DNA of 64,000 bases from Escherichia phage vB_EcoM_3HA11. The notes below the pieces were generated by a model that made no database searches, had not been told where the DNA came from, and saw only the letters and a program-made list of their open reading frames with translations. Made by a program: the position numbers and the translations under genes. Below are positions 31,360 through 37,405 of this stretch, one piece after another. Each line of letters starts with the position of its first letter. Position 1 is the stretch's first letter. The stretch lies in sequence record MN342150. One strand, 5' to 3'.

Positions 31360-31977
31360 ATGACGATGACAACGTTGAAGGCCATGGCCTTGTCCGTGAC
31401 CTTTACCATTGCCAGCGGGAGTGTGCACGCTTCCCAAAGTACCACCCAATGTGATTACGAATTTTCTGATCAGCAACTTTCAACTATGGCCACTGCCTAT
31501 CACATAGGCAAACAGCAAGACCTTGGTTTCACCCTCGCCGCAATATCATGGAGGGAAAGCCGCGCCGGAGAAGATGTTGTATCCATGCGGAATAACCTGA
31601 AATCGGCTAATATGGGGGCATTTCAAAATCGCGTCCAAACCGTCGGGAAACGGGAGGGATGCAAAACACAGAAGTGTTACGCCAATGTCGCGATCAAATT
31701 ACTGGTCAATCAAGAATATGCTGCCAATGCTGCCCTTGATGAAATGAATTTCTGGCTAGAATATCATAACCAAAACATCCGCAAATCGCTCTCCTCTTAC
31801 AATGCCGGTTTCAGTCGTAACCAAAAATCCAATTCATACGCTGCTGATGTCGTGAAGAAGGCTAAATATCTTCAACGATGTGTGTCTTTCAAAGGCATGG
31901 CAATAAACCCAAAGGTCGACCCAGGAGTGATCGCCATGAATAAGCGCACGATTGAGAAACTCAAGAGGACCCGATAA
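31360..31977 (+). CDS. secreted protein with signal peptide (205 aa)
   Basis: RBS AAGGAA; N-terminus MTMTTLKAMALSVTFTIASGSVHA. Confidence 0.55.
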   Translation: MTMTTLKAMALSVTFTIASGSVHASQSTTQCDYEFSDQQLSTMATAYHIGKQQDLGFTLAAISWRESRAGEDVVSMRNNLKSANMGAFQNRVQTVGKREGCKTQKCYANVAIKLLVNQEYAANAALDEMNFWLEYHNQNIRKSLSSYNAGFSRNQKSNSYAADVVKKAKYLQRCVSFKGMAINPKVDPGVIAMNKRTIEKLKRTR

Positions 31978-32615
31978 TGAATATCACTCCATCTCAGACC
32001 GGATATGAACACTTAATGGTGTTTATTGCGATTCAGGGGGCAAAAGAAGGCATCATCAGTTCTGAATATTCTGGAACGATGCGCCTGGCTGATTATGTTG
32101 CTCCCGAAGCGTTTATCAAGAAATGTATCGACGCATGGTGCCTTTATGCTATCGGCACGTATCCTACTCCTCCGGCAGGTGAGATACTGTTTACCGTTCC
32201 GACCCCAGCCGCTGGCGACACAGACGCGATCTTTGCTGATATGTTGGCCAAAGGTTATCTGGCATATGATAGTGCTCACAATGTCTATGACTTCTCGGCG
32301 TTGAATCGTATCTTCGGATACACCATAACATCCGAAGCCAATATTCCCGACTATGGAATTCTGGCATGGGGTATTGACGGTCTCGGCGCAACATATGCGT
32401 CTTCTGATGTTGGTCCTGTATTGATTGACACAGGTGTGACAATGGAGCAATACATGTCACAATTCCCTCAGCATAATGTTACCGGAAGCGACATCATTAT
32501 TGTCTATCCTGGTTCTAATGCGTTGTCCCGCCTGGTGGACGGCTGGAAGCCTCAGCTGAAGGACATCGTTGCTGGAATCAGATTTCACATCCCTGTCGTC
32601 AATCCCACACCTTAA
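31977..32615 (+). CDS. hypothetical protein (212 aa)
   Basis: TAATG overlap with the upstream gene; no recognisable domain. Confidence 0.5.
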   Translation: MNITPSQTGYEHLMVFIAIQGAKEGIISSEYSGTMRLADYVAPEAFIKKCIDAWCLYAIGTYPTPPAGEILFTVPTPAAGDTDAIFADMLAKGYLAYDSAHNVYDFSALNRIFGYTITSEANIPDYGILAWGIDGLGATYASSDVGPVLIDTGVTMEQYMSQFPQHNVTGSDIIIVYPGSNALSRLVDGWKPQLKDIVAGIRFHIPVVNPTP

Positions 32616-32995: not shown

Positions 32996-33073
32996 GACCC
33001 TGGGGCATATAACGCCCCTTTCTTTTCGCTAATTAAGGGAAACCGCACCGATTTTATAATCAGGAGAATTACA

Positions 33074-35461
33074 ATGGCCATCCCATCTTTCTTGAACTTT
33101 CTTGAAGAGTCTAAACAATTAGACGAAGCGTTTAACTCATCCCCGTATGAATTGACTTTCGGCAAGAAGAACGCTGGCGACATTTTCTTCACATTTGTTG
33201 ATGAAGACGAAAAAGAATTCCGTATTCAATTCTATACCCCACAAGGTCTAGGCAAGAATGTTCGCCAAGTCTTTATCGGTCAGAAGCGTGGTTCAACCTA
33301 TCCAGACGCAATCGGTCGTTTCAAAAACCCAATGCGTGTCATCGCATCCATGATCGAAGCGACTAAACAATTCATGGCGACACCGCTGGGTAAAACCATT
33401 GATGGGTTTGCGATTAACTTCTCCAAGAAAGCTCTAGAACGCGGAACGACGTTACTCCCAAAAATTATTCGTCAATCTGGTCTGAAGCAGAAACTCAACG
33501 TCATGGATCTGACTTATACCCCAATCCCTGACCGCGCCTTCGTATGGGTTGTGCGTAAAGGCAAGGATCCTGCTCAGGTATTTGATGGTCCGAAAATGAA
33601 AGGTGTCACATGGGATGATCCGGACAAAGTCGGTGACGTTCCTGACCAGGCTGCTCGTGACGCCGCACTACAAGGTGACATGGATGATTTGAGCCAAGCC
33701 GTAAATGCCGATTCTCGCTGGATTCTGACCAAAGCTGATCATACTCAGCCTATGCTTGTCTGGTCTGGTAAAGAACGTGGGCGGACTATTACCGCCAATA
33801 TCGCACCTCACGCGAATGAACCTGGTGTGTATGCTGGTAGTATCATGAACGAGAAACGGATCCGCGCTCAATCCCCAGACGCTATTGTACGCCAACTGGG
33901 ATTACCGCAGATCCCTCTGAATATTCTGAATGATTTCACCAAGCAGTCGTCCATCTTCTGGAAAGAGATGACGGGGGATTCTGGAAAAATAGACATGCAG
34001 ACTCTTCCAAAAACCGGTTCTATGGATGATCTGCGCAACCAGGGTTATATCGCCCGCATCTTGGGCATCGTTGATACATATGCTCCTCAGCAAGTCGGCA
34101 TGTATGCTGGTGAAAAATTGGCTCGGGTTGGTGCTGGCAAATATCGAACTTCTGGCGGGTTGGATATTCAAGTCTATTTTTGGGGGATTGTCAACAGCAA
34201 ACTCTCTGTAGAAGTGGTTTCTGATTTATCTGGCAATGAACAGCTGATGCTGGAAGGCGACGTGAAAAACGCGGCTTTTGAAATCGTCAGTGCGATATCC
34301 CGTGCTGCTGATTCTCAGTTCAACGGTGAAGTGGAATGTCGTGTTGTTCCGATCAACGGTGCCCCATACCCGATTCAAAAGATTTCCCGTTCCCAGGGTT
34401 ATTCTTATGTCGATTGTATTTCGTTTACTTTGAAGATCGCCGATGCATTGTTAAATCGATTTACTCTGGGTAAGGCAGTCAAACTCGATCTGATAAAAGA
34501 GTTCCCTCGAACGACGTTTATTGTTCGTTATGACTGGCGCGGCAAAGATACTCTGATGGTCCAGTCTTCTGATGGGAAGACTATCTTCGGCGAAATCAAC
34601 ACAAATTCCAGTGATAACGCTGTCATCACTGCGAACCTGAAAGCCCCAAGCAATGCGAAGATATTTGGTGAAACCGTTCATGGGTTCTCTGTGGCTTGGG
34701 ACTTCCAGTTCCCTGCGGGTAGCCAGCTGCAAGCCGCACGGTTCGTTACGAACGTGACTTACGACTTCGATCGTAATAAGGCCAACATCACGACCATGCT
34801 GACAGAAAATGGCCGAAATGTAGTCAATAGCCGCGGATATGACATTCAGTTATCTGTCAAGTCTGTGCAAGATGCTTTGAATGAGACTTCACAACGCCTG
34901 AAAGACGCTGCGGCTCAATTGAGCCATCTCAGTTCATCAAACTATAACCCGAACAATCTGTTCCTGAATGATATCACCGTCAGTAAGTTTGGTGCAATTA
35001 TGTTCCAAGACAAAGATCTGGCACAGTCCAGAAACCGCACGGTAGTCATTGATGCTTTGGCTCGGGCGAAAGATCAGGTCGCTGGTGGTAAGAATGCAGG
35101 TGACCTGGCCACCTATGCCGGATCCATTCGTGACAGCGCTCCTAATGGACGAGATCTGGATTGGCAGGTATACACAGCCAGTAATGGTACAGTTCTGAAT
35201 GTTGCTTGGGATATCACTTTCCGTCGCAACACAACCGAAGGCGCATATCGTGAATTCAAAGATCAGATCAACCGTGCCAACCAATACCTGCAAACGGTAT
35301 ACAACGACGCGAAATCTAAAGGCTATAATCCCACCGAGCCAAATCTCATGACTATTGAACGCGCTCGTCAATCCGACGAATGGGCTATGAGTAATGGTGA
35401 TAGTGCATACAGTGAATATGAACAATCGCTGGGTGGTAATCTCCAGATCCGTCTGAAATAA
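33074..35461 (+). CDS. large virion internal protein candidate (795 aa) with capsid-targeting-like N-terminus
   Basis: RBS CAGGAGAA; N-terminus MAIPSFLNFLEES shares the F-L-x-F-L-E-E pattern with the three downstream internal-protein candidates. Body unassigned. Confidence 0.6.
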   Translation: MAIPSFLNFLEESKQLDEAFNSSPYELTFGKKNAGDIFFTFVDEDEKEFRIQFYTPQGLGKNVRQVFIGQKRGSTYPDAIGRFKNPMRVIASMIEATKQFMATPLGKTIDGFAINFSKKALERGTTLLPKIIRQSGLKQKLNVMDLTYTPIPDRAFVWVVRKGKDPAQVFDGPKMKGVTWDDPDKVGDVPDQAARDAALQGDMDDLSQAVNADSRWILTKADHTQPMLVWSGKERGRTITANIAPHANEPGVYAGSIMNEKRIRAQSPDAIVRQLGLPQIPLNILNDFTKQSSIFWKEMTGDSGKIDMQTLPKTGSMDDLRNQGYIARILGIVDTYAPQQVGMYAGEKLARVGAGKYRTSGGLDIQVYFWGIVNSKLSVEVVSDLSGNEQLMLEGDVKNAAFEIVSAISRAADSQFNGEVECRVVPINGAPYPIQKISRSQGYSYVDCISFTLKIADALLNRFTLGKAVKLDLIKEFPRTTFIVRYDWRGKDTLMVQSSDGKTIFGEINTNSSDNAVITANLKAPSNAKIFGETVHGFSVAWDFQFPAGSQLQAARFVTNVTYDFDRNKANITTMLTENGRNVVNSRGYDIQLSVKSVQDALNETSQRLKDAAAQLSHLSSSNYNPNNLFLNDITVSKFGAIMFQDKDLAQSRNRTVVIDALARAKDQVAGGKNAGDLATYAGSIRDSAPNGRDLDWQVYTASNGTVLNVAWDITFRRNTTEGAYREFKDQINRANQYLQTVYNDAKSKGYNPTEPNLMTIERARQSDEWAMSNGDSAYSEYEQSLGGNLQIRLK

Positions 35462-35511
35462 ACCATAGCCCCTTCGGGGGCTAAATACATCAAAATCCTT
35501 AGGAGATCATG

Positions 35512-36081
35512 ATGAAACCGTTTATCGAATATTTTAAAGAACAAGCCCAGCAGCCGCAAACTCATGGCGGTATACAAGGCAAAAGTGTAACCATCACTAA
35601 ACAAGCCGATGGAACACAATGGTGCTCCGGCGCTACCGTGACCCAGATCACTCCTGACAATCAGGCCGATGTCTATAACCTGGAATTGACTAATGGCAAC
35701 ACCACTAAAGTGAAACTGACGCCGGACCAGGTTCATGCGGTTTCTGTGGGCAAAGATGTTGTTGCCGTTCATGACGGATACGAATTCTTCTTTGGTAAAG
35801 ACGCCAGCAAAGGTCAGGTCACAGAATCCTATGCTCAAGAACTAGCGAATATGGATAAGATGATCGGTAAAGCGCTGGGCGTTGGCAAATCTCGTAAAAG
35901 CGGTCGTACAGAGTTTGAATATTCCGGTATTCCTGGTATTGGAAAACCTGTCGCAATCGACTTCGGCGGCGAAGACGATCCGTATGTGATCGTCACAGTC
36001 GCTGGTAAACAGCATGACATCAGTAAGGGAAAAACCCTAGCTGTGGACATTGCCAAATATATCGGCGTGAAACCTGTCTAA
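35512..36081 (+). CDS. internal head protein candidate (CTS-bearing)
   Basis: RBS TAGGAGA; N-terminus MKPFIEYFKEQA resembles the T4 internal-protein capsid targeting sequence MKTYQEFIAEA. Confidence 0.55.
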   Translation: MKPFIEYFKEQAQQPQTHGGIQGKSVTITKQADGTQWCSGATVTQITPDNQADVYNLELTNGNTTKVKLTPDQVHAVSVGKDVVAVHDGYEFFFGKDASKGQVTESYAQELANMDKMIGKALGVGKSRKSGRTEFEYSGIPGIGKPVAIDFGGEDDPYVIVTVAGKQHDISKGKTLAVDIAKYIGVKPV

Positions 36082-36090
36082 GGAGGTTGT

Positions 36091-36330
36091 ATGAAAGGGT
36101 TCCCGGATTTCCTGAAAGAGGCGAAGGTTGACCATCGCCGCCTTGGACAACAAGGTATGTACGACATCACTGATGTTGGCCGCCCCGAAAAAGGCGAACT
36201 GATCGACTACTATGATCGTAACGGGGACAAACATCAGGGGAAAGTGAAGTCTGTGAACGCACAGAATATCATGACTCTGACAAACACCAGCACTGGTGAA
36301 ACAGTCAAACTGACTCTGATTAAGCCATAA
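36091..36330 (+). CDS. internal head protein candidate (CTS-bearing)
   Basis: RBS AAGGAGG; N-terminus MKGFPDFLKEAK. Confidence 0.55.
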   Translation: MKGFPDFLKEAKVDHRRLGQQGMYDITDVGRPEKGELIDYYDRNGDKHQGKVKSVNAQNIMTLTNTSTGETVKLTLIKP

Positions 36331-36360
36331 AAGAAACCCCGCTTCGGCGGGGTTTTTGTT
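36331..36360. terminator. bidirectional rho-independent terminator
   Basis: AAAGAAACCCCGCttcgGCGGGGTTTTTGTT between convergent genes (ends at 36330 and 36359). Confidence 0.7.
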
Positions 36361-36964
36361 ACTTCACGTACATACAGACCTGGACCTTCTTGCCTTTGTC
36401 GTTCTTGACTTCTACTAATTTAGAAGCGCCATTCAGCTTGACGACAGTCCCCTTTTCCTTCCCACCACTTGGCAATTCATATTCAATCTCTTCACCAGGA
36501 GAAGGCATGCCAGCGCTTGGCCCCATAACAGCAGAGATCTTGTAACGTGCCATACCAGGGCGACCACCTTTGAAGGCATACCAGCCACCTTCTTGCATGT
36601 CTTTCCACTGTTTGTTACCGTCAACAACAATGGATGGATTACCGAAACCGGCCTTGATACCCAGCAAGTCAATTGTCTTTCCCGACTTGTTGTATTTTAC
36701 GGCAGTGTCACCATCAAACTTGTCCAGCATCTGAGTACTGGCGAACTGCCCGTCTTTGATACCAGAAGCAGCGATAACGTCCTTGGCGTTTGTCAGGACA
36801 ATCTTGCGCCCGTCTGGGGTTTCGAAAGTCACCTTATCACCAGAAACATCGGCGTGGAGGAACGTACCCGCAACGTCTTCTGTTGATTTACCGATCTTGT
36901 CAGACTTGATATGTGCAGACATCGGCGGCGCGGCTTCGGTCAAAAAGTCTTGAAAAGTTTTCAT
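36359..36964 (-). CDS. internal head protein candidate (CTS-bearing)
   Basis: RBS TGGAGAA; N-terminus MKTFQDFLTEA is nearly identical to the T4 IPI/IPII/IPIII CTS (MKTYQEFIAEA), with a Glu-Ala processing-site-like junction. Confidence 0.65.
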   Translation of the reverse strand: MKTFQDFLTEAAPPMSAHIKSDKIGKSTEDVAGTFLHADVSGDKVTFETPDGRKIVLTNAKDVIAASGIKDGQFASTQMLDKFDGDTAVKYNKSGKTIDLLGIKAGFGNPSIVVDGNKQWKDMQEGGWYAFKGGRPGMARYKISAVMGPSAGMPSPGEEIEYELPSGGKEKGTVVKLNGASKLVEVKNDKGKKVQVCMYVK

Positions 36965-37051
36965 TTCGTTCTCCAGTTATATTATTCTATATAGTACCTC
37001 ATAGACCCCATTAACACTAAATACTAGACAGTTCAACAATAGGAAACAATC

Positions 37052-37405
37052 ATGGTAAGCGCGAGTATATTCATCAACCGTGGACTGCTTGCTATAGCCC
37101 ACTCTCATGCCCTCCACTTCGTTACAACTTCCTATGCCAAGCACAAGGCACTCGGGGAGTTCTACGGGGAACTGGAGGACTTGCTGGATACCTTTACAGA
37201 GGCATATATCGGCGCGGGTGGTGTATATGTCCCAGGGTTTGAGAATATTAAACTGTACAACCCAGATCCTATATCGTATGTCAACAGCGTTGTTATCGAC
37301 GTAAACGGAATTTATGGTCAATGTGACAGCCATCTTCAAAATACGCTCGATGAAATCAAAACTTTGTGCTATCAGACCATCTACAAACTGAAGCAATTGT
37401 CTTAA
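37052..37405 (+). CDS. hypothetical protein (117 aa)
   Basis: RBS AGGAAA; preferred over the overlapping minus ORF 36977..37396 on strand context and RBS. Confidence 0.45.
   Translation: MVSASIFINRGLLAIAHSHALHFVTTSYAKHKALGEFYGELEDLLDTFTEAYIGAGGVYVPGFENIKLYNPDPISYVNSVVIDVNGIYGQCDSHLQNTLDEIKTLCYQTIYKLKQLS

Follow-up and report, generated by a model that had tools for sequence, protein, structure and literature searches.

An 88-kDa Kuttervirus protein shares its amino-terminal module with T4 Alt and may be a head-internal protein with a different cargo

Escherichia phage vB_EcoM_3HA11 (sequence record MN342150; the 64,000 nucleotides analysed here are called the window) encodes a 795-residue protein that begins like a small internal protein of the T4 head and is several domains long. 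How would such a protein enter the particle, and what would it carry there? Its open reading frame (ORF) occupies 33074..35461 on the + strand, ATG start and stop codon included, precisely as a first-pass annotation made from the letters alone had drawn it. An AGGAG (33062-33066) stands 8 nt 5' of the ATG and homologues begin at the same Met. The window is that of a Kuttervirus (ViI/CBA120-like, Ackermannviridae) and is 94-96% identical to Kuttervirus genomes; the gene is likewise 94-96% identical in DNA to its counterparts in Matapan, SJ2, Guerrero and CBA120, and it is the orthologue of CBA120 orf111 and of Sajous1 gp214 (97% protein identity to gp214). Many Kuttervirus proteins are 92-98% identical to it. 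In PHROGs it is a full-length member of phrog_3867 (E = 0, residues 1-795), labelled 'unknown function'. The precursor has a mass of 88.3 kDa, an overall isoelectric point (pI) of 8.4 and a multi-domain build. The answer that we favour, and hold to be rather probable, is an accessory 'ejection' protein of the Alt type, located inside the head, trimmed by a protease and co-ejected, whose cargo is not an ADP-ribosyltransferase (ART) and is probably not an enzyme. It is best described as the loading module and processing site of T4 Alt joined to a different cargo. The parts of the gene, with amino acid (aa) positions, are as follows; here and below a slash within a motif marks a known or predicted cut, CTS stands for capsid-targeting sequence, and pLDDT is the predicted local distance difference test score.

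33074..33127, + strand: predicted propeptide, aa 1-18 (MAIPSFLNFLEESKQLDE), a CTS-like segment with LEE-12 and then LDE-18/AF; cleavage predicted from alignment to Alt and conservation
33128..33643, + strand: Alt-N-like domain, aa 19-190, basic and near-invariant across Ackermannviridae (alignment, AlphaFold2, Foldseek, hhalign)
33644..33988, + strand: variable segment, aa 191-305, prone to insertions and swaps (homologue comparison, low pLDDT)
33989..35143, + strand: central cargo, aa 306-690, several small alpha+beta domains (sheet plus long helix) with no recognisable catalytic fold (AlphaFold2, Foldseek)
35144..35461, + strand: swappable C-terminal module, aa 691-795 (motif W-x-[IL]-TFRRNT), and the stop codon (homologue comparison)

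Is the leader a true CTS? The T4 internal proteins IPII and IPIII start, in the T4 record, with MKTYQEFIAE and IPI with MKTFKEFTS...ITE, and the T4 prohead protease gp21 has the specificity L/I-x-E. The 795-aa protein starts MA-IPSFLNFLEE, and MAIPSFLNFLEE fits the aromatic-x-x-aromatic-[LI]-x-E pattern of IPII and IPIII. Mutagenesis in T4 has assigned CTS positions 4 and 7 to head targeting and positions 8 and 10 to gp21 cleavage (PMC9026906). At these four positions IPSFLNFLEE (aa 3-12) carries F, F, L and E; in homologues F6 and F9 do not vary, and E12 hardly does. Across the 90 ORFs of the window the N-terminal pattern occurs in only four genes, all adjacent (33074+, 35509+, 36091+ and 36359-), where 0.39 would be expected; the pattern was defined post hoc, after these genes had been seen, and a P value is indicative only. 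The CTS-like N-terminus that the first-pass annotation had pointed out is real in this sense.

Where would the leader be cut? Five [LI]xE motifs are spread over the 795 residues, two of them (LEE-12 and LDE-18) within the first 18. LEE-12 is kept in 35 of 37 close homologues, and the second, LDE-18/AF, is the conserved site, present in all 37. Glu-18 is the sole invariant residue in an alignment of 38 diverse N-domains. In the 82-sequence family alignment its column holds E in 81 of 81 residues, with one gap, and the consensus reads [L56/I17]-x-E(81/81)-[A64/S15]-[F71/L9]-[N/D]-[S/T]-x-P-Y: L or I two positions before the Glu (73/82), A or S and then F or L after it. The length of the leader before this site, 4-45 aa in the family, is not conserved. 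Profile alignment places L16-D17-E18/A19-F20 on I4-T5-E6/L7-F8 of Alt, and other Alt proteins read QLNE/VFDE or QLNE/AFESE at the cleavage site, next to QLDE/AFNS here. T4 Alt loses six residues by gp21 cleavage at ITE-6 (PMC5694885; also the annotation of X15811). Judged by these alignments, Glu-18 as the likely equivalent of the ITE-6 processing site is well supported computationally. An intact N-terminus would give the tryptic peptide QLDEAFNSSPYELTFGK, and AFNSSPYELTFGK is the N-terminus expected after the predicted cut at E18.

Does the relationship to Alt extend beyond the processing site? Residues ~14-180 are homologous to the Alt N-terminal domain (~aa 7-185 of T4 Alt), a conclusion well supported computationally. 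When the 82-sequence N-domain profile was aligned with ten Straboviridae Alt N-termini, hhalign returned a probability of 95.3% and E 2.4e-8 over 163 columns (query 14-180, Alt 2-181), against E 0.08-0.77 for reversed and column-shuffled controls. The ten were gathered from Straboviridae phage records, a search with T4 Alt having given only sequences at least 98% identical. With a deep alignment AlphaFold2 models the N-domain at pLDDT 88 and a predicted template modelling score of 0.81. Among predicted viral structures, the Foldseek matches to this model after its own family are the Alt RNA-polymerase ADP-ribosylases of Aeromonas phages phiAS5 and 50AhydR13PP, Citrobacter phage CF1, Escherichia phage HY03, Shigella phage SP18 and Acinetobacter phage Henu6 (E 1e-6 to 1e-4, probability 1.0, template modelling score 0.56-0.61). 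The matches further include proteins with deaminase or ParB/sulfiredoxin domain annotation. What had been put forward as a likeness in size to Alt is thus literal homology over the N-terminal ~170 residues. The domain (aa 19-190) has a pI of 9.7. Pfam PF26846, a newer family listed for Alt, may cover the Alt side, and no structure of Alt or of any Ackermannviridae virion was found in the PDB copy searched.

The same N-domain also occurs joined to true enzymes. In P0188, P0200 and P0186 it precedes a PF03496 ART domain; the N part of P0188 matches phrog_3867 (E 2e-20) and its ART part the Alt family phrog_802 (E 2e-36), and its gene adjoins those for gp23, a T4-type scaffold, Peptidase_S77, portal, tail tube and sheath. 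On this metagenomic T4-like contig (L005 616-3968) a 516-aa gene comes next after that for P0188 (580 aa), both beside the gp23-scaffold-protease-portal block; going by its length alone, our guess is that the 516-aa gene encodes P0180, a second member of the N-domain family. An exhaustive HMMER search through 1.8 billion representatives gave ~80 proteins, 300-1,677 aa long, in which the shared part is limited to the N-terminal ~180 residues. By tblastn 355 phage records contain the N-domain, from phages of Salmonella (158), Vibrio (73), Klebsiella (44), Dickeya, Serratia and others, with up to three copies per genome in some Vibrio phages; a profile search of a large protein database with the N-domain alignment gave six short proteins only. 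According to the T4 record (L004 5066-5451), alt.-1 and alt.-2 go back to an old duplication of the initial part of alt, so that in T4, too, the N-terminal module of Alt has been duplicated by itself.

Does the protein reach the virion, and is it needed there? Packaging had been predicted, and for the orthologues it holds. In CsCl-purified Sajous1 virions gp214, with 196 spectra, ranked among the top five proteins by detection (major capsid protein 924, VriC 311, sheath 89, portal 89). Spectral counts indicate copy number only roughly. Mass spectrometry (MS) of these particles identified the prohead protease and the scaffold as well (PMC10892097). Genes for the Peptidase_S77 protease and a gp22-type scaffold lie outside this window. 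The annotation of Dickeya phage LIMEstone1 divides the orthologue between two overlapping ORFs, ORF082 for the N-domain and ORF081 for the cargo; both were MS-confirmed as structural, ORF081 with 23 unique peptides and 55% coverage and ORF082 with 4 peptides (PMC3296691). The Vi01 homologue is named 'phage associated protein'. CRISPR-based genome reduction of Kuttervirus selz/SenALZ1 gave viable mutants (PMC9825161). In their deposited genomes P0156 and P0168 are in-frame fusions of an upstream gene with the last 57-66 residues of SeLz1_174, the orthologue, which remove its aa 1 to ~735. The gene's orthologue is dispensable in the laboratory and, with most of SeLz1_174 deleted from viable phages, is not an essential tail part. 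The alt and ip genes of T4 are likewise dispensable.

What is the cargo? The first-pass annotation had proposed an enzyme, and the homology and structure searches that would reveal one were run. Searches of Pfam, NCBIfam and PDB sequences with the whole 795-aa protein, as single sequence and as profile, gave nothing useful; Foldseek of the full model against the PDB gave nothing at E <= 1e-3; the PF03496 ART domain (R-S-E type) is absent; and an ART, nuclease, peptidase or kinase fold was sought in the cargo and none was found. A purely structural fold, such as that of a tail fibre or decoration protein, was looked for as well and did not turn up. Past a stretch of low pLDDT at aa 172-212, AlphaFold2 models aa 310-795 at pLDDT 80-90 as a chain of small sheet-plus-helix domains. 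A comparison of six segments found no internal sequence repeats. Could the cargo still be a catalytic domain of a fold not in databases, delivered to modify a host target as Alt does? The N-domain family does contain enzymes (the three ART proteins, and the Foldseek matches with deaminase or ParB/sulfiredoxin annotation), and size and packaging parallel Alt. However, the model of aa 310-795 is confident and still matches no enzyme class by family, profile or fold; the cargo is a string of ~90-110-residue sandwich domains in series and not one large catalytic core; and Gly, Pro and hydrophobic residues make up most of its invariant positions, no conserved cluster of His, Cys or acidic residues being among them. 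D457, R479, E533 and D633 are conserved polar residues of the cargo. A packaged enzyme is for these reasons unlikely.

How does the cargo evolve? Homologues are present throughout Ackermannviridae, but they are mosaic. Residues 1-192 are 84-99% identical in all Ackermannviridae homologues compared, aa ~193-305 differ by insertions or replacements of ~100 residues, aa ~306-678 drop to 45-65% identity, also between proteins whose N-domains are 99% identical, and aa ~678-795 can be exchanged independently. Cargo recombining on a near-frozen N-domain is what would be expected if the N-domain has the virion-side role (loading or exit) and the cargo faces variable hosts. The C-terminal module also has a life of its own: in the 1.8 billion representatives ~45 mostly small proteins match the C-terminal ~105 residues only. 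An [LI]xE falls at residues 4-16 in 19 of 36 stand-alone small proteins of this kind (background 9.8%), for example MKLTQITE/MAAKK, and P0196, outside that count, starts with the T4-CTS-like MKTFKEFVKE. Because of these leaders the stand-alone proteins look like ordinary CTS-bearing internal proteins.

This mosaicism bears on a second alternative, in which the protein is a passive component that builds the head core, or fills or neutralises the DNA-filled head, and does nothing after ejection. The high spectral count, the basic N-domain (pI 9.7), dispensability as for the T4 internal proteins and the lack of a catalytic fold would all suit it. A filler, however, would hardly have its cargo exchanged between lineages whose N-domains are 99% identical, which fits host-facing arms-race proteins, and in relatives the same N-domain bears ART effectors; we regard a passive role as improbable. 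Least credible is an external structural accessory (tail completion, neck, tail-fibre-associated or capsid decoration), the reading of some database records: phages without the gene are viable, no Pfam or PHROG tail family is matched, a head-internal protein has a homologous N-terminus, and a putative prohead-protease site is present there, the gene stands among replication and CTS-bearing genes far from the tail module, and the predicted secondary structure has no long fibre-like coiled coil or beta-helix.

Where, then, do the tail names come from? The paper that calls gp214 'tail completion' reports no structural or sequence match for it and mentions Phyre2 and HHpred for hypothetical proteins generally (PMC10892097). 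Membership of a tail completion or terminator family was tested for the 795-aa protein and no such match emerged; an essential assembly factor of that type is contradicted by the viable selz/SenALZ1 fusions. The tail fibre or tailspike name, given to one homologue, sits badly with the predicted chain of small alpha+beta domains, the lack of fibre or spike matches and the Alt-like N-terminus. The 'tail completion' and 'tail fiber' labels of the family are unfounded. In the literature searched the family is of 'unknown function' or misnamed, and no mention of an Alt-N relationship, a propeptide site or an argument for dispensability was found.

How would an Alt-type ejection protein work? The 88-kDa precursor would be made late in infection, and its leader, with the CTS-like FLNFLEE and possibly helped by the Alt-N-like domain (aa 19-190), would bring it into the scaffolding core of the prohead. 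A T4 gp21-type prohead protease (Peptidase_S77) would then cut the leader off after Glu-18 (LDE/AFNSSPYE), perhaps also after LEE-12. Many copies of the 86-kDa mature protein would be kept in the DNA-filled head and leave with the DNA at infection. The cargo (aa ~190-795), made of small recombining alpha+beta domains, would most likely bind something in the host early on, in take-over or counter-defence, and not act by catalysis. Location in the head, cleavage at E18, ejection and cargo function are what we infer for the 795-aa protein from its relatives and its own letters.

Several observations weigh against this reading. The evidence itself reaches as far as presence in the particle, and the interior location, the cleavage and the ejection lie a step beyond it; the spectral counts, moreover, give only the rough measure already mentioned. 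The link to Alt is remote homology: BLASTP of the 795-aa protein against T4 Alt is not significant (E 0.58; the best segment is in register at both N-termini), and E is 0.019 when the N-domain profile is set against T4 Alt alone. Direct BLASTP is insufficient, and the relationship becomes visible with profiles and structure only. The orthologue is split in LIMEstone1 (L018 2916-4512, overlapping frames) and in Shigella phage Ag3 (P0255, gp098) into an N-domain ORF (163 aa) and a cargo ORF; PP35, of the same species as LIMEstone1, has one 531-aa ORF. The split may be either a sequencing frameshift or real, and if it is real, the cargo is packaged without a covalent N-domain and linkage in cis is not required. 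Finally, what is the ~170-residue N-domain for? In T4 a CTS of 10 residues suffices for packaging, so the N-domain must do something more: DNA or scaffold binding (conceivable because of the pI of 9.7), ordering at the portal and passage through the tail are possibilities.

A wider idea, which we put forward tentatively and would not yet back, is that the Alt N-domain with its L-x-E leader is a cargo-independent 'delivery chassis' common to Straboviridae, Ackermannviridae and Vibrio phages related to them. Polymorphic effectors would be loaded by it into the head for co-injection, in a phage counterpart of polymorphic toxin systems, and the Kuttervirus cargo would be a new, abundant, non-enzymatic effector of counter-defence or take-over. 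The cargoes seen or suggested behind the N-domain are ADP-ribosyltransferases, possibly deaminase-like and ParB/sulfiredoxin-like domains, and novel alpha+beta arrays.

How close are the known systems? T4 Alt (gpAlt, an NAD+--arginine ADP-ribosyltransferase, PHROG 802) comes closest. The two have in common the homologous N-terminal domain of ~170 residues, a short leader that ends in [LI]-x-E right before it (E18 aligning with ITE-6), large size (precursors of 88 and, for Alt, 76 kDa), presence in virions and non-essentiality, and relatives of the 795-aa family carry an Alt-type ART domain. Unlike Alt, the 795-aa protein lacks the ART, its cargo is unrelated to Alt residues 190-682, and its leader is longer, with an extra CTS-like segment. 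Alt also has a C-terminal site, LTE-619; a conserved [LI]xE propeptide site of this kind was sought in the 795-aa protein and none was found. There are ~40 copies of Alt per virion, and the virion signal of the 795-aa orthologue appears higher on a rough comparison. With the T4 internal proteins IPI, IPII and IPIII it shares the aromatic-xx-aromatic-[LI]-x-E leader, a gene clustered with other CTS genes in a variable locus, dispensability and, purely by analogy, a possible role in counter-defence; IPI*, for instance, inhibits GmrSD. The internal proteins differ in being basic single-domain proteins of 8-21 kDa with no Alt-N domain, whereas ours is an 88-kDa multi-domain protein, and no sequence or fold relationship between it and IPI-III was found. 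The Dar proteins of phage P1 (DarA, DarB, Hdf, Ulx) are large, dispensable, loaded into the head during assembly, delivered with the DNA and anti-restriction. They may be functional analogues at most: there is no detectable homology, the head-assembly system is another one, and the 795-aa protein has no methyltransferase or helicase domain.

Why does this matter? The proteins that a phage sends in with its DNA decide how the infection goes in its first minutes; apart from those of T4 and P1, very few are known. Ackermannviridae are widely used in biocontrol and therapy work; the thymidine of these phages is hypermodified. If the 795-aa protein is indeed an ejected protein of the Alt type, these phages carry an abundant, unrecognised injected factor whose cargo varies between near-identical phages, a candidate determinant of host range or counter-defence. 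The uncharacterised N-terminal third of T4 Alt would gain a testable function in loading or ejection, the Alt-N module points to a natural and modular means of loading foreign proteins into phage heads, and the tail labels now spreading in databases can be corrected.

What signals surround the gene? Its position is between the gp46/gp47 recombination genes and the gp61 primase gene, outside the tail and head modules. A promoter and terminator arrangement had been claimed around it, and three features come into question.

33002..33018, + strand: predicted terminator-like hairpin (GGGGC-loop-GCCCC, then TTTCTTTT) at the end of the upstream gene (consensus scan, sequence)
33055..33066, + strand: TATAAT hexamer (33055-33060) and Shine-Dalgarno AGGAG (33062-33066) (sequence)
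35466..35483, no strand assigned: GC-rich hairpin with a UUCG loop just 3' of the stop codon, overlapping CTAAATAC at 35481-35488 (consensus scan)

The claim survives weakly. The two hairpins and the TATAAT speak for it, and [CT]TATAAT is enriched 5' of genes across the window; on the other side, the TATAAT is too near the ATG for a normal leader, which makes it uncertain as a promoter, and on the + strand a T-run is missing after the second hairpin. A search for the T4 late promoter TATAAATA near the 795-aa gene found no copy, and this motif was rejected as the late promoter in use here. Over the 80 nt 5' of window genes the 7-mers [CT]TATAAT and TAAATAC show an 8-13-fold enrichment, with examples at 35481-35488, 37017-37024, 33055-33060 and 49151 (-). 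CTAAATAC stands 20-35 nt before the ATGs of 35509 and 37052; its copy at 35481-35488 is a candidate late promoter of the gene at 35509..36081, and the LIMEstone1 record marks a 'putative late promoter' at the equivalent place. The late promoter of ViI-like phages has been given as unidentified (PMC3184105).

The neighbours downstream include the other three genes with a CTS-like start.

35509..36081, + strand: 190-aa protein, CTS-like leader MMKPFIEYFKE/ (Sajous1 gp215, 32 spectra; LIMEstone1 ORF080, confirmed structural)
36091..36330, + strand: 79-aa protein, CTS-like leader MKGFPDFLKE/ (Sajous1 gp216, 20 spectra)
36359..36964, - strand: 201-aa protein, near-canonical T4 CTS MKTFQDFLTE/AAPP, sporadically present

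The 190-aa and 79-aa proteins are likely true internal head proteins of Ackermannviridae. In Sajous1, gp215 and gp216 have been read as part of a tail 'ferrojan horse' operon, gp214-217 (PMC10892097), which is not favoured here because three of these four proteins have head-targeting leaders. CBA120, Guerrero and Sajous1 lack the 201-aa gene; S117 has it (97%), and so, at ~77%, do Gloob, MK-13 and FEC14. The locus is hyperplastic, and the gene resembles a mobile cassette for an internal protein. It and the 79-aa gene are convergent, with a bidirectional hairpin (36334-36355) between them.

Further out, a 117-aa protein (37052-37405, +) is found in virions of Sajous1 and LIMEstone1 and has no CTS motif. 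Its Sajous1 counterpart is reported to be ferritin/Dps-like (Phyre2 96.7%; PMC10892097), and PP35 names the counterpart 'starvation-induced DNA protecting protein'. Upstream, a 205-aa protein (31360-31977, +) starts with a signal-peptide-like stretch, contains an SLT lytic transglycosylase domain (Pfam E 2e-4) and gave 31 spectra in Sajous1 virions; the name 'RegB endoribonuclease' that it bears in several records is probably wrong. The next protein, of the DUF7270 family (212 aa, 31977-32615, +), has a LIMEstone1 counterpart, ORF085, that is confirmed structural. In the smallest viable selz mutants the 3' part of the DUF7270 gene is deleted and its N-terminus is fused to the end of the orthologue of the 795-aa gene.

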